Virus record (IMG/VR): IMGVR_UViG_2671180804_000001
Source: a virus
Lineage: Duplodnaviria > Heunggongvirae > Uroviricota > Caudoviricetes
DNA length: 16,868 bases
Reading direction: 5' to 3' (one strand)
Shown here: positions 1-16,868 of the stretch, piece by piece
How the letters are laid out: each line of letters begins with the position of its first letter
Position numbering within the stretch: position 1 is the stretch's first letter
Translations under genes and position numbers: made by a program
Notes under the pieces: model-generated
The model's database searches: none
What the model was told of the DNA's origin: nothing
What the model saw: only the letters and a program-made list of their open reading frames with translations

Positions 1-891
1 TTACTTTGTAATGAGATCGGGGTCAACTTCGCTTAACCGGCTTCGTTTTGACAGGTTGCCGGTCTTTCTTTTTTTCACTTTCGCCAGTTCTTCCGCAGAG
101 TAATGCGACGCGACATCCAGCCGTCGAAGCCCCATTTTGATGTACTCGCTGTTGATCTCAATACCAATGAATTTTCGTCCGCTGGCGATGGCTACGGCAC
201 CGGTAGTAAAGCTACCAGCAAACGGGTCGAGAACGATATCGCCTGGGTTGGAAGAGGCGAGAATAATGCGTTTCAGTAAGGCTTCCGGTTTTTGCGTCGG
301 GTGGTTTTCATATTCATCCATCAAATAACGCACGCGCGGAAAATCCCAAACGTTACCCGGTACTTTTTGATGATTGTAAGGCTGTGGAGGATTTTTGCGA
401 TAATCGATCAACGCGCGCTGCGATCCGGTTTTGGCTTCTACCAGAATAGCATCACCGTTGAATGTGTAGTTCTTTGCGTCTTTCACCATCATCAGGATGG
501 GTTCGTACATGGAGCCGTAGTGTTTTTTCGCCTGCACTCCAGAACTGTCATATGACCAGACGATGCGACTTTTGATGGTAAAAAGCTTGCGGCACTGGAG
601 ATCGATAAAGGGCATGTTTTCCGTACTGTTCATGATGTACATGCTGCCCTGCTTTTTCAGAACGCGGTGGCACTCTGCAATCACTTCAAACAGCCAGTCG
701 ATAAACAGATCTTCTTTCCAGGCTTCGATCAGACCATCAAAATTTTTACCGATGTTATATGGTGGGTCGGCAAAGATCAGATCGACACTTTCGGCGGGGA
801 TCTTTTTAAGTTCGGCAAGCGCATCACCGTGAATAATGGTCTTAGCTTCATTACCAAACCGGGTCGGTTCACATCCTGTTCTCATGGTCAC
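1..891 (-). CDS. yhdJ: DNA adenine (N6) methyltransferase, YhdJ-type
   Basis: 296-aa ORF with a DPPY catalytic motif (FADPPYNIG) preceding an AdoMet-binding motif (LDPFAGSFTTG), the order typical of beta-class amino-methyltransferases. Sequence and length match my recollection of enterobacterial YhdJ. The stop codon sits at window positions 1..3. Confidence 0.85.
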   Translation of the reverse strand: MTMRTGCEPTRFGNEAKTIIHGDALAELKKIPAESVDLIFADPPYNIGKNFDGLIEAWKEDLFIDWLFEVIAECHRVLKKQGSMYIMNSTENMPFIDLQCRKLFTIKSRIVWSYDSSGVQAKKHYGSMYEPILMMVKDAKNYTFNGDAILVEAKTGSQRALIDYRKNPPQPYNHQKVPGNVWDFPRVRYLMDEYENHPTQKPEALLKRIILASSNPGDIVLDPFAGSFTTGAVAIASGRKFIGIEINSEYIKMGLRRLDVASHYSAEELAKVKKRKTGNLSKRSRLSEVDPDLITK

Positions 892-3753: not shown

Positions 3754-4566
3754 ATGTTATCGAAAAAATTTACTGCCTTAACTGGTAGCGGCCAAACTCA
3801 ATCTGAAACCAGCCCGAAGGATATTTCTGGTAATAATTTTGCTGCGCGAATTCCTGTAACCCTAAGCAATATCGGCGGGAAAGAAACTCAGGCTGTAAGC
3901 GGCCGTAAGCTGCATACGTTTCTGGCTGTAGGGCGTGACTTTACCAACTGGATCAAAGGGCGCATTAAGCAGTACGGGTTCGTCGAAGGGGTGGATTATA
4001 TGATTGTCGAATATTTGACCTCGCCAAAACGGGCGAGCTCAAAATCTCGCCAGCGTATTGAGCATGACTACATTGTCAGCCTGAATATGGCTAAAGAGCT
4101 TTCGATGGTTGAACGTAACGCGCAAGGCAAGATGGCCCGCCAGTATTTCATCGACTGTGAAGAGCGTCTGCGCCGCGTAGCGCCAGAGGAATACGAGGCG
4201 GCGTTGCTGGGCTGGCGTAAAAATCGTGTAGCTGCCTGTGAAGATCATAAAAGCATGGCCGATGCAATGAAGGGCTATATTGAGCGTACCGGCGACAGGC
4301 AACACGGATTTGCCTACAGCAATGAATGCTCGTTCCTGAATAGCCTTGTGCTGGGTGTGCATCCTCGAACGTGGGCGAAAAAGAAAGAAATTCCGGTAAA
4401 GCAGGTTCGTGACCATATGAATGCAGATCAACTGGCACAGCTGGCTTATTTGGAAAGCCGTGATTGTGCTCTGCTGGATCTTGATACCCGTACGGCAACC
4501 CGCAAGACAAAACTCACCGAACTGGCACAACGCTGGCTGGTTAGACGTGTTGGAGGTGCCGGATGA
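3754..4566 (+). CDS. Phage antirepressor-like protein (AntA/AntB N-terminal domain)
   Basis: 270 aa. N-terminal segment QAVSGRKLHTFLAVGRDFTNWIKGRIKQYGFVEGVDYMI resembles the AntA antirepressor domain. GGAG RBS 8 nt upstream of the ATG. Confidence 0.65.
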   Translation: MLSKKFTALTGSGQTQSETSPKDISGNNFAARIPVTLSNIGGKETQAVSGRKLHTFLAVGRDFTNWIKGRIKQYGFVEGVDYMIVEYLTSPKRASSKSRQRIEHDYIVSLNMAKELSMVERNAQGKMARQYFIDCEERLRRVAPEEYEAALLGWRKNRVAACEDHKSMADAMKGYIERTGDRQHGFAYSNECSFLNSLVLGVHPRTWAKKKEIPVKQVRDHMNADQLAQLAYLESRDCALLDLDTRTATRKTKLTELAQRWLVRRVGGAG

Positions 4567-6481: not shown

Positions 6482-6843
6482 CCGATATTTTTGAAGTGAT
6501 AGGCCCATTGTTCCGCAAACTGACCGAAACATGTATTGCTCACCAGATAGCGGAAACCGGTTCGGCAACCTTGCTGGTGGAAAGCGATAAGTATATGGCC
6601 CGCTATCGCTTCACGCTGGAGCCGCGCGTAACTGAAAACGTATTGATGAAATATATGATTTTTGGCTGTTTTGAAGAATTCGGGCGCGATGAGGGGTTAA
6701 GGCGTTTGCGGGATATTCTGCTGACCTGCTTTACCGACGATGGCGATATTAACGAAATGGGGTTGCAGATAGTGAAAAGCTGCCACCTTGAATACCTGCA
6801 TGAAGATTTGGAAGCGGATCTTTCCAATAAGGTGCTGCACTGA
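6478..6843 (+). CDS. Hypothetical protein
   Basis: 121 aa. GGAGG RBS; ATGA overlap with the upstream gene and TGATG overlap with the downstream primase gene. Confidence 0.5.
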   Translation: MTDIFEVIGPLFRKLTETCIAHQIAETGSATLLVESDKYMARYRFTLEPRVTENVLMKYMIFGCFEEFGRDEGLRRLRDILLTCFTDDGDINEMGLQIVKSCHLEYLHEDLEADLSNKVLH

Positions 6844-8975
6844 TGAAGATGAAAAACGCCCCAAACATTAAGTGTCTGCCAAAGGACAAGTTTACTGAGG
6901 CGATTATTTTTGCGGGGGAAGATGCTTATTCACACGCGCAGCACTGGATCGAGAGCGAGGGGAAAAGGGCGGGGGATGATGTGCCGCCTGTGTATCTGGG
7001 GAAAAAGCAGCTGGAGGAGCTTGAAAGGCTGAATATCATCGATCAGGGGCGTCGTTGCGTACGCGTGATTAGAGCTGGCGAGCTTTCCGAAATGCAGATA
7101 AGCACTATCGCAACCAAACTGGCGCTGGCGGATGTGAAAGAGGCCCGGCTGTTTAATGGCATGTTTGAGCCTCAGCCGAAGGAGAACTGGACGGATGTAC
7201 TTCCACGGCTCAGGGAAGATGCCGAGCGTGGGGAAAGTATTGTGGTAAATCTGCCTGTGAAAAAAAGGGAGCCAAAGCCTGAACCGGGTGATGAACTGAA
7301 ACCCCGCGTAGAGAGCCGTAACGATGGCCTGTACTGGATCACGCCAAAGGTGGATAAGGACAGCGGAGAAATAATCAATAACGAAACGTGGATGTGTTCG
7401 CCGCTTGAGGTGGTGGGGTCCGGTAGTGACGGGGCCGAGCGCTATCTCGTTTTGCGCTGGCGTTCGCCACGTGGCCATGAAGATATTACCAGGGCGATCC
7501 CCTGTGCTGATATCGGTGAGCGTGACGGCTGGCGCTATCTAAAGGCTGGTGGGGTAAACGTAACGACTAAAAGTACATTCCGGGCAATTCTTGCCGACTG
7601 GCTACAGCAATGTGGTGCAGGGCAGGAATGGATTATTAGCCATACCACCGGCTGGCATCACGGCGCATACATCATGCCAGATGGTGAAGTTATCGGTGAT
7701 CCGGAAATGCCTATTCTCTTTAACGGTCGCAGCGCTGCATCTTCCGGTTATGCCGTGGCTGGAACTGCTGAGAGTTGGCGGGATTCAGTGGCATATCTGG
7801 CAGGAGGCAACCCATCGATGATGCTGGGTGTGGCTGCGGCATTGTCTGCGCCGCTGATCGGGCTGGTGGGCGCTGATGGCTTCGGCGTCCATTTGTTCGA
7901 ACAGTCCAGCGCCGGTAAGACTACCACCGCAAATATTGCGAGCAGTATTTGGGGCGAGCCCGACGCTTTGAGGTTGACCTGGTACGGTACCGCGCTTGGT
8001 ATTGCTAACGAGGCAGAGGCGCATAACGACAGCCTGTTACCACTTGATGAGGTAGGGCAGGGCAGCAGTGCTAAAGATGTCGCCACGTCTGCTTACACTT
8101 TGTTTAACGGGGCTGGGAAGTTGCAGGGGGCTAAAGAGGGTGGCAACCGGGAGCTAAAGCGCTGGCGAACTGTTGCGATCAGTACCGGGGAAATGGATAT
8201 TGAAACATTCCTGGCTGCTGGTGGAATTAGGGTGAAAGCTGGGCAGCTGGTGCGCCTGCTGAATATCCCCATGGAGAAATCCACGGCCTTTAACGGGCTG
8301 GCTAACGGAAAGGCCCACGCCGATGCACTGAAAGAGTCATGGATTGATAACCACGGCGCAGCAGGGCGTGAGTGGGTAAAATGGCTGGCAACCCACCAGC
8401 AGGAGGCTAAACAGGCTGTGCGGGATGCGCAGACGCGCTGGCGCAGTCTTATTCCGGCTGATTATGGTGAACAGGTTCATCGTGTGGCTGAGCGCTTCGC
8501 CATTCTTGAGGCTGCGCTGGTAACTGGTTCGCCGATAACTGGCTGGAGTGAACAAGCCAGCCGGGATGCTATTCAGCATAGCTTCAATGCCTGGGTAAAA
8601 GAATTCGGAACAGGTAACAAGGAGCACCAGCAGATCATCGAGCAGTGCGAGGCCTTTCTGAACGCGCATGGTATGAGCCGCTATGCTCCGCTGCCATACT
8701 GCCCGTCAGATATGCCAATTCGTGATATGGCTGGATACCGCGAAAGGGGCAAGCATGATGATTCGCCGATGGTGTTTTATACCTTCCCTTCTGCGTTCGA
8801 AAAAGAGATAGCGCAGGGGTTCAATGCGAAGCAGTTCGCCAGAGTTCTGTCTGAATCTGGAATGTTGACACCCCCAGCAAGCGGCAGGGGATACCAGCGG
8901 AAATCACCGCGTATCGATGGGCGTCAGATTAATGTTTACGTCATTCAGTACCAGCAGGAGGGAACCGAAGAATAA
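6843..8975 (+). CDS. Replication initiator, primase/helicase-like protein (P4 alpha-like role)
   Basis: 710 aa, last gene of the coupled operon and immediately upstream of the iteron array. Contains a P-loop-like motif (LFEQSSAGKTTTAN). Resembles satellite/prophage primase-helicase proteins of the DUF927 type; that assignment is from memory, not a search. Confidence 0.75.
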   Translation: MKMKNAPNIKCLPKDKFTEAIIFAGEDAYSHAQHWIESEGKRAGDDVPPVYLGKKQLEELERLNIIDQGRRCVRVIRAGELSEMQISTIATKLALADVKEARLFNGMFEPQPKENWTDVLPRLREDAERGESIVVNLPVKKREPKPEPGDELKPRVESRNDGLYWITPKVDKDSGEIINNETWMCSPLEVVGSGSDGAERYLVLRWRSPRGHEDITRAIPCADIGERDGWRYLKAGGVNVTTKSTFRAILADWLQQCGAGQEWIISHTTGWHHGAYIMPDGEVIGDPEMPILFNGRSAASSGYAVAGTAESWRDSVAYLAGGNPSMMLGVAAALSAPLIGLVGADGFGVHLFEQSSAGKTTTANIASSIWGEPDALRLTWYGTALGIANEAEAHNDSLLPLDEVGQGSSAKDVATSAYTLFNGAGKLQGAKEGGNRELKRWRTVAISTGEMDIETFLAAGGIRVKAGQLVRLLNIPMEKSTAFNGLANGKAHADALKESWIDNHGAAGREWVKWLATHQQEAKQAVRDAQTRWRSLIPADYGEQVHRVAERFAILEAALVTGSPITGWSEQASRDAIQHSFNAWVKEFGTGNKEHQQIIEQCEAFLNAHGMSRYAPLPYCPSDMPIRDMAGYRERGKHDDSPMVFYTFPSAFEKEIAQGFNAKQFARVLSESGMLTPPASGRGYQRKSPRIDGRQINVYVIQYQQEGTEE

Positions 8976-9588: not shown

Positions 9589-9783
9589 ATGGCCTTTAAC
9601 GATTTTATGGAAGAATCGGAATTGTTTGAGCTACTGGGCAAGAAAAAAACGGCTGTATGGCGGTTACGAAAAGACCATGGTTTTCCGAATCCTGTTCTTA
9701 CCTACCCGTCGCGCTACAGCCGCAAAGCTGTAATGAAATGGCTTGAGGATGGTGGTATTAACCGTACGGTTTGTGGTTATTGA
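9589..9783 (+). CDS. AlpA/Xis-like helix-turn-helix DNA-binding protein (second copy in the element)
   Basis: 64 aa with GGAGG RBS. ELFELLGKKKTAVWRLRKDHGFPNPVLTYPSRYSRKAVMKWLE fits the AlpA/excisionase HTH pattern. Confidence 0.6.
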   Translation: MAFNDFMEESELFELLGKKKTAVWRLRKDHGFPNPVLTYPSRYSRKAVMKWLEDGGINRTVCGY

Positions 9784-10353: not shown

Positions 10354-10710
10354 ATGCAAAGACTGGTTGAAATTAAAAAACGCCTTGAATTAATCGAAGA
10401 AGCATTAAATGAACAGTATCCAAATTATAAATCAGACCCTGAGATTACAGCACAAATTACAGAATTGAAAGGACATGTACAAGACGCTCGTAAAATAATA
10501 CAAAAAAAGAAATCCCTGGGTGAACTATCAGACTTTGAAATAGCATTTATCGAACCAGCTATTAATGATGTTTACTTAACCTCGATCGATAAAATTCGTC
10601 GTGGAGCCAAACCTAGCCCTAGCGTGAGTGAACATATATACGATACGTCTGTGACTTTGGATCATTGGTTGGGCGAAATTGGTAGGTTTAAATCCAATCA
10701 GAATGGTTAA
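10354..10710 (+). CDS. Hypothetical protein, gene 1 of the AT-rich cargo operon
   Basis: 118 aa, charged and predicted helical. A sampled stretch (10381..10440) is about 33% G+C. No recognisable motif. Confidence 0.55.
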   Translation: MQRLVEIKKRLELIEEALNEQYPNYKSDPEITAQITELKGHVQDARKIIQKKKSLGELSDFEIAFIEPAINDVYLTSIDKIRRGAKPSPSVSEHIYDTSVTLDHWLGEIGRFKSNQNG

Positions 10711-10761
10711 AGCGATTTGTAATGTTTTGATTTTTGTAAGGGTGGAATTCGGAGGGGAGAA

Positions 10762-11664
10762 ATGGTAGCAAGCGTATCAACTAAGGAAAATTTGCCTAAG
10801 CTGGAGACAACCTTTCATGTCAAAGCGAATGGTTCAAGTATAAATATCAAACTTGGTGCTTTAGAGTTTAATCATGTCTTATCTCCATGTGAAAAATATT
10901 TATATGTTCAACTTTGTAACTCAACGTCTGAGGACTCAGGTAAATTCATTAAATTAGATGTAACTACTGGACGTAAAATTTATTCGGTAGGGCCTGAGTG
11001 GGGATGGGCCAGAGGCTATACATTTAATCATGATGGAAATATTTGTGTTGAGACAGATCACTATGGTACCTGGTTAGTTAATGATGATGGAGGTATTTCA
11101 GACCGCGCTGATTACTATATGCGCCGCGTGAAGACTGCTGATTATGGAACGATGAGAGCTTTGCCTAATTTTTTTGAGTTGCATGGGAAAACACCTGAAA
11201 CATGTGCCGAGGCGATGGAGGCTCTTGAACGATTTTTGAGTACATGTTCATCCATGTTCCATGGATTGTCGTATGGTGCTCTGGCATTAAAATCACGTGC
11301 TGAGATTCAAGCCTTTTTGGGTGATAACTCAGGGGCACTACAGAGTTGCGTTGATGCTTTATGCCTTGACCCAAAAGTTACAGTTAAACGAATGCTGAAT
11401 TCACTTAGTAAAAAACTTAATCTTGATAAAGACACTTTAAAACCTTCCGATTGGGTTGAGTCGCTAAAAGTTGATATAGAAGCCAATCGTAATATTGAAA
11501 TCAATAAGATTGAAGAAAATCGCAATCAGATAAAAGATAAGGATGTGATTGTTGTCAGTGACATGAAAATTATGAATAAAGAACCACATGCTAAAAATAA
11601 CATCATGAAATATTTTTTGCTGATAGTGGTCTTAGTGGCAGCATTAGTTGCTCTCTTCAAATGA
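10762..11664 (+). CDS. Hypothetical membrane-anchored protein, gene 2 of the AT-rich cargo operon
   Basis: 300 aa with strong GGAGGGGAG RBS. Single hydrophobic helix at the extreme C-terminus (YFLLIVVLVAALVALF); the rest looks soluble. AT-rich. Confidence 0.6.
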   Translation: MVASVSTKENLPKLETTFHVKANGSSINIKLGALEFNHVLSPCEKYLYVQLCNSTSEDSGKFIKLDVTTGRKIYSVGPEWGWARGYTFNHDGNICVETDHYGTWLVNDDGGISDRADYYMRRVKTADYGTMRALPNFFELHGKTPETCAEAMEALERFLSTCSSMFHGLSYGALALKSRAEIQAFLGDNSGALQSCVDALCLDPKVTVKRMLNSLSKKLNLDKDTLKPSDWVESLKVDIEANRNIEINKIEENRNQIKDKDVIVVSDMKIMNKEPHAKNNIMKYFLLIVVLVAALVALFK

Positions 11665-11702
11665 TATTCATATAGGTGATTAATAATCATAAGGTTTAGT
11701 TT

Positions 11703-12224
11703 ATGCAGGAGCTAACGATACAGTTTGCCAAAGATTTACACAGTGTGTTTCAAAGCAATCGCAATAAATTAGATAAGATAGGAATACCATTTTTTTATAG
11801 TTTTCCGACAAATGCATGCCAGGGCGCATCTGTGTATCTTAGCTTATTTTTTACGTGGCTTGTGCCAGAGGCTACTGTCAGAGTTGTTAAAGGAAGTCAT
11901 AGAACGCTGGATCATCATCACTACTGGGTCGAACTTGATGGGAAGGTGTTTGATTTGACAAATGCTCAGTTCGAATCCTGGTTGGGAGAAAGGTATCCTG
12001 AGCTGGACTCTCCTGTATATGCTCAAAGAAAGCATCCTCTTCGTAATTATTTTTTTTATAAAGAAAGAGAGTCGGCCATCCGTGCTTATGCAACATTCTG
12101 TAGCGAGCATGCGAACGTAAAAGATGTAGACAAGGCGCAATGGTTTGTTATGGGGAAACTCAGAGAAATGGGCTGGGAACTTGAGCAGAACATCGCTGGT
12201 GGCCGATTGATAAAAATAAGATAG
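11703..12224 (+). CDS. Hypothetical protein, gene 3 of the AT-rich cargo operon
   Basis: 173 aa. Contains a conserved-looking Cys (TNACQGAS) and a His cluster (LDHHHYWVELDG) that could form a Cys/His catalytic pair; this is speculative. AT-rich. Confidence 0.55.
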   Translation: MQELTIQFAKDLHSVFQSNRNKLDKIGIPFFYSFPTNACQGASVYLSLFFTWLVPEATVRVVKGSHRTLDHHHYWVELDGKVFDLTNAQFESWLGERYPELDSPVYAQRKHPLRNYFFYKERESAIRAYATFCSEHANVKDVDKAQWFVMGKLREMGWELEQNIAGGRLIKIR

Positions 12225-12249: not shown

Positions 12250-12274
12250 GGCGATGTTGTTACATCGCCTTTTT
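12250..12274 (+). terminator. Rho-independent terminator closing the AT-rich operon
   Basis: Perfect 8-bp stem GGCGATGT / ACATCGCC with a 4-nt loop, followed by TTTTT. Confidence 0.6.
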
Positions 12275-12366
12275 CATATCATTATCGTTTCATTTTATGC
12301 AATAAATGTATTGATCGTTTCATAATCAGCAACTACAATCACTGTATAAACATCAGGGGGGGTGGT

Positions 12367-12543
12367 ATGAACAAGAAGCAAAACTCACAAGTAGTGCTAC
12401 TGACGCGTGGTCAGGTTGAAGCTTTGCAACGCATTCAGGAAGAGGAGCGTAAACGTTCTGAATTTGGCATACAGCCATCAATCCATGAAATCGCACGCAA
12501 GCTGGTGGATAAGGCGCTGAGCTATCACGGAGGTGCTTTCTGA
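12367..12543 (+). CDS. Small putative DNA-binding protein (RHH-like), absent from the supplied ORF track
   Basis: 58-aa ORF translated by hand: MNKKQNSQVVLLTRGQVEALQRIQEEERKRSEFGIQPSIHEIARKLVDKALSYHGGAF. GGGGGTGG RBS upstream. Its stop overlaps the next start as TGATG. It falls below the apparent length cut-off of the ORF track. Confidence 0.45.
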   Translation: MNKKQNSQVVLLTRGQVEALQRIQEEERKRSEFGIQPSIHEIARKLVDKALSYHGGAF

Positions 12544-13379
12544 TGGCAAAAGTATCGTTAACAGCACTCCTTGGATTTACTGGTGGCGCAAATAACGTCC
12601 GCAATTCCCAAAAGCCAACACTTCGACAGCGGGAAAAATCCATGAGCAAAAAAGAGCGTAGCTTTGCACATCTTGATGCTGCGGCTACTCAAACGATTGT
12701 GGTGCAGGACCAGCAGCAAACCCAGACTCTGAAACCAGCCGGTTCTTACCGTATTTCCAGTCAGCATAGCCGGGGGCATAACGTTGCAATATCAGAGGAA
12801 GGGAAGAATAGCCCTGTCCTGGCGGTTAAGCTGTTACGTGAAACGAAACTAAGCTCCAGTAAAATCCGTGCTCGCCTTCGGGAAGAGCCTGCGGCTTTAT
12901 CAAAGTTCACGGCTAATTTCATGGAAGAAAATATGCCAGGCTGGGAATTTCTCAACGATGAGGAAAAATCCAGAACTGCCATGCAGCTATCCATTCGCGA
13001 TAATGATCAGAACGGTTATCACGCTTCCCGGAATCGTGCATCTCAAACGCTTAAATCGCTTGAAGAACCACTTACTGATGATGAAAAGCAGGCGATGCTC
13101 GAAAATCTTCGTCTGGACCAAAATGCTTCCGATCCTGATACCCCGGATAATGTTGCGGCCCGAAAACAAGCTGACGATGAATATCAGGAGCAGGTTGCCA
13201 GGGCTATTGTTGCCAGAAACAATCAAATGCGTTCCACCGGTGTGTTCTTGCCAGGCGATACCCGTACAGCTGGTGGTAAGCCCTCCGCACCTCGAAATGA
13301 GTTGCAGATGATTAAGTCTGGTCTTAAATCCGGGGCTATTGTGGTTTCTCAGCCCTCAAATGGAGAAATTCATCCATGA
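12543..13379 (+). CDS. Hypothetical protein, long paralogue of the following gene
   Basis: 278 aa with GGAGGTG RBS 7 nt upstream; coupled to the small ORF upstream. Shares a domain of about 100 aa with the next gene. Confidence 0.5.
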   Translation: MAKVSLTALLGFTGGANNVRNSQKPTLRQREKSMSKKERSFAHLDAAATQTIVVQDQQQTQTLKPAGSYRISSQHSRGHNVAISEEGKNSPVLAVKLLRETKLSSSKIRARLREEPAALSKFTANFMEENMPGWEFLNDEEKSRTAMQLSIRDNDQNGYHASRNRASQTLKSLEEPLTDDEKQAMLENLRLDQNASDPDTPDNVAARKQADDEYQEQVARAIVARNNQMRSTGVFLPGDTRTAGGKPSAPRNELQMIKSGLKSGAIVVSQPSNGEIHP

Positions 13380-13825
13380 CTTTCAGCCACCTGAATAACA
13401 GTCCCATGGCTGTGGCAGGTGGCCTTTGGGCCTCTGTCACCCCGATAACAAATGATGTCACTACGATGTCAGCGCATGCAGAGGCCCACTATATTGCGAG
13501 CAGCGAACCAGCTAAACACAACCCCATACTTGCTCTCCGTCTTATTGAACAGGGCATACCTCACCAGAAAGCAATCAGTGTGCTGGAGAAGTCCCCGCGA
13601 GCGCTAAGCAATTATACCGTTCGGAAAATGGAACGTTTCTGCCCCGGCTGGGAGCTGATGACTGAAGAAATGCAGAATATGGAGGCGTATCTCCATAGTG
13701 TCAGAACCAGCGATGGAAATGGATATCTGGCTTGTATGAACGCGGCCACAGCGGCATTAAATAAATTTATAGAGCCGGTAACGGCTGAAGACTTTATCCT
13801 GGTGGGAGATAGTGCTGATGTCTAA
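13376..13825 (+). CDS. Hypothetical protein, short paralogue of the preceding gene
   Basis: 149 aa; ATGA overlap with the upstream gene. RKMERFCPGWELMTEE...DGNGYLA aligns with NFMEENMPGWEFLNDE...DQNGYHA in the preceding protein. Confidence 0.5.
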   Translation: MTFSHLNNSPMAVAGGLWASVTPITNDVTTMSAHAEAHYIASSEPAKHNPILALRLIEQGIPHQKAISVLEKSPRALSNYTVRKMERFCPGWELMTEEMQNMEAYLHSVRTSDGNGYLACMNAATAALNKFIEPVTAEDFILVGDSADV

Positions 13826-14228
13826 TTCATTTGATTTTGAGCTGGTGGCTGACGATAAGGTCAGTGGTGCAATTGAGCGTATTAATGAATCACTGAATGA
13901 CTTGCAGCCGAAGCTGGATAAAACCAGAACGGGGCTGCAATTCGGTGGGCAGGAAACACTGGATGGTTTGAACGGGTATAACTCTCGCCTTGAGCTGATG
14001 GCCCAAAGCGCCAGAGATAATGTGCAGTATATCGGTAATATGGTCCCACCATTAAAATGGTTGGGGATATCTCCGGAAAGCTGGAGAAAATGGCGAAGAT
14101 TGGCCTTGTCGGTGGTGCTATTGGTGGTGTTGCCTACGCAACTGGAAAACTGGCTGAAAGCTACCGGGAAGCATCGCGTGAGGCCTATAACCTTGACGTA
14201 TCGTCTAAAAATGCCGGAATGCGGGTAG
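13818..14228 (+). CDS. N-terminal fragment of a frameshift-interrupted gene
   Basis: ATG 13818 with GGGAG RBS. Translation looks protein-like up to about 14040. After that the frame gives W/R-rich sequence, while the -1 frame (ORF 14057..14878) opens at 14039 and looks protein-like. Confidence 0.4.
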   Translation: MSNSFDFELVADDKVSGAIERINESLNDLQPKLDKTRTGLQFGGQETLDGLNGYNSRLELMAQSARDNVQYIGNMVPPLKWLGISPESWRKWRRLALSVVLLVVLPTQLENWLKATGKHRVRPITLTYRLKMPECG

Positions 14229-14878
14229 ACGACTTCTCTCGCCTTGCTGGTGCGTTGCAGTTTGTCGGCGCTGATAGTGAGAGCGCCAGTTCGTCTATTG
14301 AGGGATTTGCGAAGGCGCTGAAGGAGGCAAGTAGCGGCAGCAATCAGGGCATGATGGCGGCATTTGCGACAATTGGTGTGCAGATACAGAAAAATAAAGA
14401 CGGGTCTGTTGATACGCTAAAAACGTTACAGGAAATTGCGAGAATTTTCCCTAAATACCGCTCGGAACAACAGAAGTCAATCGCTGACAGTCTTGGTCTG
14501 ACACCTGAAATGCTGGCGTTAATGCGTGAGGGGGCGCGAATGAAAACCCTTCTGGCAAAAGCCGATAAAGTTGGACTGACAGTCGATCCCACGCTCAATC
14601 AGCAACTGACGGACTTTAACTCTGCAATAAACGAGGTCAGTGCCTCATGGGATGGCTTTAAGTCTAAAGTCGAGCGTAAAATTTACTCGCACCTTGATAA
14701 TAACGGCATAACAGATACTGTACGTGGCGCATCTGATATGCTTGAGAACAACTTTGACAATATCTCAATTGGTCGCTTCTCGGGACAAAACAAAGGGGAT
14801 GATTCTGCATTAATGCGCCGAGCATTGCGCGACCCTGAGTTTATCAAACAGCTCGATGGGAATGAAAAAACCAGCTGA
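14057..14878 (+). CDS. Central segment of the interrupted gene
   Basis: 273-aa ORF in the -1 frame relative to 13818. No RBS at its own ATG, so it is more likely a continuation than an independent gene. The helical, Ala/Leu-rich composition loosely resembles the N-terminal part of tape-measure-like proteins; this is my impression only. Confidence 0.5.
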   Translation: MVGDISGKLEKMAKIGLVGGAIGGVAYATGKLAESYREASREAYNLDVSSKNAGMRVDDFSRLAGALQFVGADSESASSSIEGFAKALKEASSGSNQGMMAAFATIGVQIQKNKDGSVDTLKTLQEIARIFPKYRSEQQKSIADSLGLTPEMLALMREGARMKTLLAKADKVGLTVDPTLNQQLTDFNSAINEVSASWDGFKSKVERKIYSHLDNNGITDTVRGASDMLENNFDNISIGRFSGQNKGDDSALMRRALRDPEFIKQLDGNEKTS

Positions 14879-14889
14879 CTGCTGGCGTT

Positions 14890-15642
14890 ATGACTGATCA
14901 GGCGAGAAATAAATACCGCAGACATTATTATAACCAGGACAGGGCACAACAATTACTGGACGATATGTCCGCCATTACCCGCCCTCAGGCTCCAGGTAGA
15001 AATAATGTGCCATATAACCAAGGGGGTCAGTATGATTCTATTTTTAGCGATGCTGGCAAAAAATGGGGCGTCGACCCGCGTCTACTCAAAGCCATTATGA
15101 TGCAAGAATCTGGTGGCAATCCTAATGCTATTAGTGACGCTGATGCTCGTGGGTTAATGCAGATAATCCCCCCGAACTTCAAAGCCACCGGGATAACGGA
15201 CTGGAAAGACCCAAACCAGAATATTAATGCTGGAGCACAAATTTTATCCGAAAACTTACAGAGGTCAGGTGGCGACGTACCTCTGGCGCTTCGATATTAC
15301 CACGGAGGATATGACCGCCGTCGATGGGGGCCAAAAAATCAGGCTTATCCATATGCGGTCCTCGATAATTACCAGCAAATTATTAAAGGTGAAGCCCGCC
15401 AACGTGACGGCTTTCCAGATATCCCCATTAATGGGCAATCTGCAGGTTCAGGAATTTTGCAGCCAATTCAGAATGGGAGCCGTAGTGAAAGTACGCTCAC
15501 TGATAACCTGGCTCGTTCGCTTAAAGAGGCAATGTCCGATCAGACGCTGAAGCTTGAAATCACCATGGTCAATGATAAGGGTGAACGTAAGACCTACAAC
15601 GTTGAGAATAATGGACGGATCACCACGCCAATGAATTATTGA
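14890..15642 (+). CDS. Lytic transglycosylase (SLT) domain protein, C-terminal segment of the interrupted gene
   Basis: 250 aa. Family-1 lytic transglycosylase motifs are present: MMQESGGNPNA (catalytic Glu-Ser), GLMQI, and a downstream YYHGG block. Its frame is open from 14866 and overlaps the stop of the preceding ORF at an A6 homopolymer. Confidence 0.7.
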   Translation: MTDQARNKYRRHYYNQDRAQQLLDDMSAITRPQAPGRNNVPYNQGGQYDSIFSDAGKKWGVDPRLLKAIMMQESGGNPNAISDADARGLMQIIPPNFKATGITDWKDPNQNINAGAQILSENLQRSGGDVPLALRYYHGGYDRRRWGPKNQAYPYAVLDNYQQIIKGEARQRDGFPDIPINGQSAGSGILQPIQNGSRSESTLTDNLARSLKEAMSDQTLKLEITMVNDKGERKTYNVENNGRITTPMNY

Positions 15643-15755
15643 TACCGACAGGCACTCAGGAGGTGACCGTATATAAAAATGGGTCCTTCCTGAGACTTTT
15701 GTAAGGCACGGGCATTGCGCGCCGCAGTGTTTTCCTAGCTACAGGTTTTGAATTT

Positions 15756-15961
15756 GATTGACACTTTACACTAAGGTTTTTCCGGTTGCTGGGTTGTTAA
15801 CTCCCTTGAGCGGCAAGGGATTACCGGGAATAACCGCCGATCCTGATTGACAGTCAGATTGACACTTTCTGCCTGAAAAGTGTCAACCGGACAGAAAAAG
15901 TGTCAAGTAGCTGGCGCTTTACAGTTTGATTGACAGTTTCCCGCTGGTGGGTTGACACATT
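15756..15961. promoter_or_regulatory. Cluster of TTGACA(C/G)TTT repeats upstream of the TerS-like gene
   Basis: Copies at 15756..15767, 15845..15854, 15857..15868, 15928..15939 and 15952..15961 (forward) and 15877..15886 and 15897..15906 (reverse). The pair 15857..15868 / 15877..15886 forms an inverted repeat around a short spacer. Confidence 0.45.
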
Positions 15962-15994
15962 GCCTGCCAATGACAATTACCCAGGAGAAAAAAT

Positions 15995-16582
15995 ATGTCA
16001 CTGATGAGTGTGAGTCAGTACGCTAAACACGCAGGGCTAAGTCGTCAGGCCCTTTACAACTGGGAGGCTAAGCAAGGTTTCCCCGCACGAGTGGACGGCA
16101 AGATTGACCAACTGGCCTGTGATGCTTATCTAGCCCGGTATCGTAGTAGCAGTGACCCGCGTACAAAGAATGCAAAGAGCAAGCCCATATCGGCTAGGGA
16201 GGTAAAGTCGATGGGGCGTGAACCGGTAGATATGAGTGTGACCGAGATAAAGCGCATTATGGCTGGCGACGCTAACAAAGCGGCCGGAATGGTCCTAGAA
16301 GAGCATGCTCAACTAGCTGCACAAGCAGTGGGCCTGTTTTTGAGTAAAGGGCCGAATAATCCCCCTGTCACATTTGGTGGTTACCGCTTGTCGATTGTTG
16401 AAACGCCAGATCATGAAGTTGGGCAGATCATTGCTGGTGGTGCGTTCGGCCTGTCTGCTGACGATGTAATTTTTGAATGCCGGGATTACACCCTGGCACT
16501 AATGAGTGATGAGACCGAAGAAACAGCCATGCGGAGGGTTACTCCTTCGCTACTGTACGCCCTGGCCGACTACAACCACTAA
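15995..16582 (+). CDS. HTH-domain protein, terminase small subunit-like (possible packaging protein)
   Basis: 195 aa with GGAG RBS. The N-terminal HTH (VSQYAKHAGLSRQALYNWEAKQGFP) is similar in pattern to the lambda Nu1-type TerS DNA-binding motif, as I recall it. Confidence 0.5.
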   Translation: MSLMSVSQYAKHAGLSRQALYNWEAKQGFPARVDGKIDQLACDAYLARYRSSSDPRTKNAKSKPISAREVKSMGREPVDMSVTEIKRIMAGDANKAAGMVLEEHAQLAAQAVGLFLSKGPNNPPVTFGGYRLSIVETPDHEVGQIIAGGAFGLSADDVIFECRDYTLALMSDETEETAMRRVTPSLLYALADYNH

Positions 16583-16676: not shown

Positions 16677-16868
16677 ATGTTGAAACAGGCAAAAATCGAG
16701 GCTGTGATTGAAGAATTGGCACGCCAGCAGGGGCACGAGCTTAATGCCGCCGATATGCTGGAGATTCGTTGCCGTGTGGCCTGTACGCTAGCGGCCAAAG
16801 AACGGCACCGCTGGCGCATGACAGCACCCGAATACCGATGGCGCAAGCCTGATAAATTACGCCGTTGA
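16677..16868 (+). CDS. Hypothetical small protein
   Basis: 63 aa from ATG 16677 with AAGGA upstream. The ORF track starts at 16506, but that upstream part runs through the terminator. The TGA stop is the last three bases of the window. Confidence 0.45.
   Translation: MLKQAKIEAVIEELARQQGHELNAADMLEIRCRVACTLAAKERHRWRMTAPEYRWRKPDKLRR

Follow-up and report, generated by a model that had tools for sequence, protein, structure and literature searches.

A paralogous gene pair of a phage satellite as candidate mimics of a helper head scaffold

What can two adjacent genes of related sequence do for a phage satellite that has no head genes of its own? The question is raised by the viral record IMGVR_UViG_2671180804_000001, analysed here over its whole stretch of 16,868 nucleotides (the window), in which an open reading frame (ORF) of 58 aa (12367..12543, plus strand) is followed on the same strand by gene X, the longer paralogue (278 aa, 12543..13379), and gene Y, the short paralogue (149 aa, 13376..13825), all three being confirmed at these positions from the ORF list and the sequence. 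A preliminary description had proposed helper-phage interference or capsid redirection for the two larger genes. This proposal has now gained sequence support from a cos core, an F-x-H-L motif and a core segment resembling a head scaffold, while the function itself we infer. We estimate a probability of roughly 45% that X and Y are satellite scaffold mimics, which would redirect or block capsid assembly of a helper of the type of Citrobacter phage phiNP and Serratia phage BZS1.

The paralogy of X and Y is real, since BLASTP aligns residues 73-181 of X (nt 12759-13085) with residues 32-139 of Y (nt 13469-13792) with 40 identities in 109 positions (37%, E=3e-22), and the three shared blocks quoted in the preliminary description all lie inside this alignment. 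Its statement that the shared domain belongs to no recognised family was likewise correct, as no Pfam, PHROG, NCBIfam or PADLOC model matches any protein of the trio. When 1.84 billion representative proteins were searched exhaustively with an HMMER profile, only 42 matched, all X-like or Y-like, and the homologues of X are confined to Enterobacterales and annotated as hypothetical without exception. A word-indexed search with Y gave one near-identical cluster, and the homologues of Y were recovered by synteny; tblastn of Y against phages found no match. Protein and genome searches detected no relative of X or Y in Escherichia, and megablast against E. coli genomes and phages found nothing near-identical to the DNA of the region. 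Sequence comparison of X and Y with the Protein Data Bank (PDB) gave noise only; calmodulin was considered as a relative and rejected, the similarity (E>=0.01) falling on the D-x-NGY loop without the EF-hand positions. The features kept in X and Y alike are an N-terminal F-x-H-L, the blocks HS..H.(V/I)A.S.EAKN.P(V/I)LA..L, PGWE(F/L) and D.NGY, and EP(L/M)T. Both paralogues occur in every complete related island, and the duplication is therefore old. The pair is a new and very narrow family.

Residues 1-70 of X are disordered and include an LLG motif and F41-A-H-L44 (nt 12663-12674), while Y begins directly with M-T-F-S-H-L (nt 13376-13393). Residues 77-231 of X are confidently predicted to form an all-alpha domain, for which no solved or viral fold was matched; the best match in BFVD, an S49 protease-family protein, was not significant. 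Related loci are designated below by L and a number. The closest of them, L035, is 94% identical in DNA and has too few differences from the window for an informative dN/dS. L035 has an 18-nt tandem expansion in the disordered N-terminus of X (L035:900-930 compared with window 12585-12590; GFTGFTGITGG vs GFTGG). In Morganella morganii (L021:10622-11122) a Y-type N-terminus (MKPDTYSFAHLSPD) is fused to a fragment of a tape-measure gene, in an island that seems decayed.

The link to head scaffolds came from a profile of the X/Y family compared with just two head proteins of phiNP, picked by genome position. The S49 protease gave no match. Residues 76-117 of X aligned with a 200-aa protein encoded between the S49 protease and decoration genes, and the alignment matches the invariant P91, L93, A94, L97, T101 and S105 of the X/Y family. 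In their phages, the genes phiNP_023 and BZS1_p06 are flanked by the S49 protease gene on one side and the decoration and capsid genes on the other; their products belong to phrog_6382 and match the Nu3-like C-terminal half of phrog_53, the N-terminal half of which is the protease. The profile of this family also matches lambda Nu3 (P=1.4e-4, probability 53%), and the two matches together identify the phiNP_023-type protein as a Nu3-type scaffold encoded by a separate gene.

The N-terminus of the phiNP scaffold, MAKASFSFAHLLGLG, contains the same F-x-H-L that is found at the start of Y and at residues 41-44 of X. A scaffold profile was built from 26 scaffolds of 40-46 kb IMG/VR phages, 25 of which have F-x-H-L at the N-terminus, as do all 14 Y proteins within their first 15 residues and all 15 X proteins within their first 50. 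In 397 unrelated ORFs from these loci the motif was never seen among residues 1-15. In the scaffolds it is part of a fuller N-terminal motif, (F/L)xF(A)HL(L/I/M)G, to which X and Y were matched by their F-x-H-L. Against the 26-scaffold profile, hhalign placed Y (P=1.5e-4, probability 51%) and X (P=1e-3) on the same scaffold segment, corresponding to residues 70-120 of X (nt 12750-12902, plus strand; hhalign and HMMER) and residues 37-77 of Y (plus strand; hhalign). The N-terminal motifs gave separate, collinear hhalign matches (P=0.013 and 0.032), and a likeness of X residues 1-13 to the LLGLG that continues the scaffold motif scored P=0.17. When the X profile was scored against six scaffolds, three reached 12.4-13.9 bits, a level attained by none of 1000 composition-preserving shuffles (local or global), and the other three 3.5-5.9 bits, which 0 to 9 of 1000 shuffles reached. 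Among 38,880 PHROG families, phrog_6382 is one of 29 weak matches of the X homologues (best hmmscan E=0.14). Over the core ERxRCAxIFxSxxAAxxPxLAAxLAFNTxMSxxxAI, the match of X and Y to the scaffold is as strong as that of the scaffold family to lambda Nu3 and lies below curated thresholds; compared directly with lambda Nu3, X and Y gave no significant match (P=0.16-0.19). Global hhalign of X and Y with the scaffold fails because the linkers differ. The genes also differ in position from those of scaffolds, not being located between head protease and decoration or major capsid genes. It is likely, though not proven, that X and Y descend from or mimic the N-terminal half of the helper scaffold.

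The identity of this helper is suggested by the packaging region of the window. A 350-bp intergenic region separates a tape-measure gene downstream of Y from a gene for a TerS-like protein, and the interval 15640-16000 has a single match in 50,697 phage records, that to phiNP, where the matching sequence is an unannotated intergenic gap immediately upstream of terS. The common part is a cosQ/cosN-like core (15675..15755, plus strand) with the blocks AAAAATGGGTCCTTCCT and CACGGGCATTGCGCGCCGC..TGTT...CTAGCTA. Past these two conserved blocks the sequences diverge, and the window continues with an array of at least seven TTGACAC/GTGTCAA repeats (15740..15960, in both orientations; read from the sequence) that phiNP lacks. 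These repeats are likely private cosB-like sites for the protein encoded next to them, which has 195 aa (15995..16582, plus strand) and an N-terminal winged helix-turn-helix (wHTH) of Nu1/TerS type (phrog_57, E=2.7e-9, residues 1-75). By analogy this is probably a satellite cos-recognition protein comparable to Rpp, although no sequence similarity to the solved RppC could be detected and tblastn found no match to it in phages. The same arrangement is known from the E. coli satellite EcCICFT073, which keeps the cosQ and cosN of its helper and has a private cosB that is read by a wHTH protein (PMC6739421). On the basis of the match of the cos core and of this arrangement, phiNP-like phages were taken as the helper type. 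Both phiNP and BZS1 are 45-kb temperate phages with a Mu-type contractile tail and a lambda-type head module comprising portal, S49 protease, decoration protein D and capsid protein E, and the helper inferred from the cos sequence would thus be of ~45 kb with a lambda-like head and a Mu-like tail.

Transcription of the trio appears to be organised as one unit with the genes that follow. The small ORF and X overlap in cTGATGg (12541-12545), as the preliminary description had read correctly, together with the translational coupling that it implies; X and Y overlap in ATGA (13376-13379), and from the small ORF through the tape-measure gene all genes are on one strand and overlap. Upstream, a terminator-like hairpin with a T-run (12250..12269, plus strand) ends the preceding accessory gene (11703-12224) and marks the start point of a new transcription unit. 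It is followed by a sigma-70-like promoter (TTGATC-17 nt-TACAAT, 12311..12339, plus strand), which is a consensus match only, in a region that as a whole shows no enrichment of promoter-like sites. Taken together, the overlaps, the terminator and the promoter-like site point to a single operon whose genes are translationally coupled. Between the -10 hexamer and the ribosome-binding site lies a palindrome resembling a LexA box, CTGTATAAACATCAG (12342..12356, plus strand; CTG-N9-CAG). Among 22 related loci from several genera, 15 have CTG-N10-CAG, the spacer being AT-rich, at 29-34 nt before the ATG of the small ORF, agreeing with the E. coli LexA consensus at up to 15 of 20 positions; spacing N9 is found in the window, in L035, and in L009, L010 and L020 of the Hafnia/Rahnella group. 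The sequence ATCGTTTCAT is present twice upstream of the small ORF in the window (12283-12292 and 12313-12322), and most relatives have TTGCAAT-type repeats farther upstream; both would be candidate operator repeats for a dimer of the small protein if it is of ribbon-helix-helix type. At the ribosome-binding site of the small ORF, the window has a run of seven G (G7) and L035 one of five (G5).

That the trio shares an operon with the cos region and the gene for the TerS-like protein could also mean that it is a regulatory or packaging accessory, controlling helper late transcription or working with the wHTH protein at cos, and operon I of the pathogenicity islands of Staphylococcus aureus (SaPIs) does encode the transcription-interfering proteins PtiA, PtiB and PtiM. 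This explanation is improbable, as X and Y have no DNA-binding motif and the long disordered N-terminus of X with a short docking motif suggests interaction between proteins.

Several observations weigh against scaffold mimicry and have to be set beside the evidence for it. X and Y resemble the scaffold only weakly, with no score above 14 bits and no hhalign probability above 51%, over ~50 residues plus a motif of four. The C-terminal part of the scaffold, which we take to be its usual capsid-binding end, has no counterpart in X: a likeness suspected by eye was rejected at P=0.56 in hhalign, with shuffles scoring as high as the real sequence. As this end is unmatched, X does not copy the part that the SaPI protein CpmB copies. 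In place of the acidic linker of the scaffold, X and Y have 25-40 residues that are not acidic, and most of the X/Y domain, including PGWEF, D-x-NGY and EPLT, has neither a phage counterpart nor a known fold. The LexA-like box of the window is one base shorter in its spacer than the canonical CTG-N10-CAG. Finally, phage-inducible chromosomal islands (PICIs) of E. coli with a similar design use full-size capsids (PMC6739421), so that small capsids are not obligatory.

The last point, and the missing C-terminal region, would also suit a pure decoy, in which X and Y titrate a head factor of the helper, such as the S49 protease or the scaffold, and block heads with capsid size unchanged, the satellite then being packaged as multimers in full-size heads. 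The similarity in motif and core would be expected here just as for a scaffold mimic, and EcCICFT073, with helper cosN and cosQ and its own cosB, does use phage-sized capsids (PMC6739421). A decoy of this kind is nevertheless unlikely, because the satellite must obtain its heads from the very pathway that X and Y would block, and two conserved paralogues exceed what a simple decoy needs. Moreover, an island of ~16 kb amounts to about one third of a helper genome of 45 kb, and this ratio of ~0.36 is the same as that of P4 to P2 and of SaPI1 to 80alpha, as in small-capsid systems.

Whether the trio belongs to the satellite proper can be judged from its relatives. A scan of one genome per species over 185,579 species yielded 26 loci. 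The order small ORF - X - Y is invariant in ~20 islands, and systematic annotation found it in all those that are complete. The hosts are Citrobacter-like bacteria, Raoultella, Brenneria, Hafnia, Rahnella, Edaphovirga and Pectobacterium and further Acerihabitans, Morganella, Providencia, Xenorhabdus and Photorhabdus. Judged from gene positions the islands are ~16 kb long, and they contain an integrase gene (int), AlpA, AntA, DUF4222, a primase and variable cargo, followed by small ORF - X - Y and the TerS-like gene; they are inserted beside fis/dusB in Brenneria and Providencia and beside dnaJ in Xenorhabdus. This gene content and order identify the element as a PICI-like satellite, with an integrase, an AlpA-type regulator (in the relatives), a primase, a helper-related packaging signal and no capsid genes. 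In the window, a gene for a tyrosine integrase (1159-2295) is followed by those for an AntA-domain protein (3754-4566) and a DUF927 primase-helicase (6843-8975). A 64-aa ORF (9589-9783) encodes a helix-turn-helix-like sequence (TAVWRLRKDHGFPNPV) with a likeness to AlpA/excisionase-type proteins by eye and no NCBIfam match; it is located downstream of the primase gene, not beside the integrase gene. Just outside the island, on the integrase side, is a gene for an N6/N4 DNA methyltransferase (1-891, minus strand) that is cut off by the edge of the window, and at the other end a conserved 63-aa ORF (16677..16868, plus strand) follows the TerS-like gene, as in most related islands.

Three unrelated accessory genes (118, 300 and 173 aa; 10354-12224) separate the primase region from the trio. 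They differ from the cargo of related islands and gave no matches in defence databases, and the last of them (11703-12224) has a weak match to YunG. PICIs have a variable hotspot downstream of the primase gene that often contains anti-phage cargo (PMC11364771). The trio is part of the conserved island core and not of this hotspot, which bears on the possibility that it is defence or toxin-antitoxin cargo, with a small ribbon-helix-helix (RHH) antitoxin followed by a toxin, for the benefit of host or island. A small upstream ORF that overlaps its downstream partner is typical of toxin-antitoxin operons, and PICIs do carry defence genes (PMC11364771). However, the trio has no PADLOC, Pfam or NCBIfam matches, it sits in a conserved late module rather than in the variable hotspot (10354-12224 here; PMC11364771), that module appears to be co-transcribed with virion genes, and an RHH fold was not verified for the small ORF, all of which makes a role as cargo highly improbable.

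The small ORF itself is not a chance reading frame, because the identical 58-aa protein is found on 221 public contigs, under the name 'hypothetical protein [Citrobacter freundii]', and homologues with 31-68% identity across genera precede X in every related island. The label RHH-like, given to it in the preliminary description, is unsupported. Neither Pfam, NCBIfam nor PHROG assigns it to an RHH family, no RHH protein was found among PDB sequences with the single sequence or a 16-sequence profile, and Foldseek found no match to the model in the PDB. What is left is a pattern compatible with strand-helix-helix: AlphaFold2 (AF2), with a shallow alignment, predicts residues 1-13 as extended and helices at 14-32 and 39-54 (pLDDT 71), in a monomer model that cannot form an intersubunit ribbon. 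The pattern G-x-x-P-S-x-x-E-(V/I)-A-R-x-L resembles RHH helix B, and an RHH fold is possible as a hypothesis. The protein may be a two-helix partner or regulator of the X/Y pair.

The preliminary description had placed X and Y just upstream of packaging-related genes. This was imprecise, since Y adjoins a disrupted tape-measure gene and the TerS-like gene comes 2.2 kb later. The tape-measure gene (13818..15642, plus strand, ATG at 13818) is of Mu type with a C-terminal SLT lytic transglycosylase, and its start overlaps the end of Y by 8 nt. In the window it is split into three frames (13812-14228, 14057-14878 and 14890-15642), two A-runs, near 14053 and 14871, each having lost 1 nt as judged from L035, where the gene is intact at 608 aa; the split is either a recent pseudogene or a homopolymer sequencing error. 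About half of the islands have their own Mu-type tape-measure gene of 600-635 aa, among them L004, L005, L011, L015, L016, L018, L019, L032 and L035, some with a PF10109 chaperone. Its position varies: it may follow Y directly, follow the TerS-like gene (L005) or precede the small ORF (L032), and the module never splits the trio. The nearest relatives of the satellite tape measures are those of BZS1 and phiNP. Xenorhabdus L006 has a tail fibre and an assembly chaperone. That satellites supply parts of the tail interior or tail tip is unusual and worth study in its own right; the benefit is perhaps a bypass of superinfection exclusion.

These genes raise the possibility that X and Y act in tail assembly, as tape-measure chaperones or adaptors that form a short/long pair like G/GT, made by duplication and not by frameshifting. 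X and Y are indeed a long and a short protein with one common domain, and a tape-measure gene of 608-635 aa directly follows Y in the window, L011, L014, L015, L016, L018, L019 and L035, its start often overlapping the stop of Y; PF10109 is absent from all these loci, and islands that do have it place the tape-measure module anywhere. On the other hand, about half of the islands (L002, L006, L009, L010, L012, L020, L022, L024, L027 and L029) have X and Y without a tape-measure gene, neither protein resembles any tail-chaperone family, and the only phage relative that could be detected is a head scaffold. A function in the tail is therefore quite unlikely.

If X and Y are scaffold mimics, the trio would open the late, virion-hijacking operon of a PICI-like satellite of ~16 kb, which would probably be switched on by the SOS response or by helper induction. 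Each protein would consist of a part that derives from or imitates the N-terminal half of the scaffold, in which a flexible linker joins the F-x-H-L docking motif to the first core helices, and of a satellite-specific helical domain. Both would enter procapsid assembly of the helper in place of, or alongside, the phage scaffold, through a partner that reads motif and core, the candidates being the phage scaffold, S49 protease, portal and capsid protein. The outcome would be small capsids that fit ~16 kb and not 45 kb, or blocked helper heads. This step, the re-sizing or blocking of heads, draws on the precedent of CpmB and Rcm, the LexA-like boxes and the size ratio. A stronger version, in which X and Y form a new class of capsid redirectors in Gram-negative satellites, duplicated, scaffold-derived, with a previously unseen helical fold, and re-sizing the lambda-type heads of phiNP-like phages, we consider doubtful.

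To our knowledge, redirection of capsid size by scaffold mimicry is documented only for staphylococcal SaPIs, by CpmB and Rcm, and enterobacterial satellites make use of external cages (P4 Sid) or packaging redirection (Rpp). X and Y, if mimics, would be an independent origin of the internal-scaffold strategy in an uncharacterised PICI lineage, and phiNP in Citrobacter rodentium would provide a tractable helper-satellite pair. Attention would also turn to the N-terminal F-x-H-L as a site of functional docking in scaffolds of Nu3 type, no solved structure of which is known to us. As the satellites often have their own tape measure, particles built by the helper might then be specified by the satellite both in the head and in the tail interior.

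How far X and Y resemble known systems can be summarised from their nearest analogues. Of satellite pairs from enterobacteria, Sid and Psu of P4 are helical, distantly related proteins encoded in the late operon beside cos that act on helper capsids, and the pair of a long and a short protein is analogous to X and Y, which have no similarity to either in sequence or fold. EcCICFT073-type PICIs with Rpp have, like the window, an integrase, AlpA, a primase, an accessory hotspot and a packaging module, and the window matches them further in having a helper cosQ/cosN core, its own cosB-like repeats and a wHTH resembling the DNA-binding domain of TerS. It differs in that the 195-aa protein has no match to the solved RppC, and in that no relative of X or Y from Escherichia came up in the protein and genome searches.

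Among phage proteins, the Nu3/gpC C-terminal scaffolds (phrog_6382 and the C-terminal half of phrog_53) resemble X and Y in their arrangement, in which a motif is followed by a flexible linker and a helical core, and in a pattern at the start of the core, (A)xSxxAxxxPxLAxxLxxxTxxSS. Unlike these scaffolds, X and Y lack an acidic linker and do not match SLDxRM...LVxKMTxLY, contain an extra 60-150 residues of an unrelated helical domain, and are encoded in a satellite.

The closest functional parallel is with CpmB and Rcm, helical SaPI proteins that carry motifs of the scaffold of the helper, act in competition with it and shift the capsids to a small size (PMC12409344). CpmB of SaPI1 and Rcm of SaPIpT1028 are, like X and Y, helical satellite proteins with helper-scaffold motifs that are encoded in a late operon together with a packaging gene. 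CpmB and Rcm lie in the LexA-controlled operon I of SaPIs together with terS, and most relatives of the X/Y operon have a LexA-like box. X and Y differ from them in having no sequence relationship, in being two paralogues and not one protein, in their Enterobacterales host, and in the lambda-like head of the helper with its Nu3 scaffold and S49 protease. The part in common with the scaffold is the N-terminal motif and the start of the core, in contrast to the C-terminal capsid-binding end in the CpmB type. As CpmB and Rcm do with the scaffold of their cognate helper, X and Y have motifs in common with that of their own, a helper assigned from cos homology, and we regard the pair, with moderate confidence, as a probable variant of satellite scaffold mimicry.

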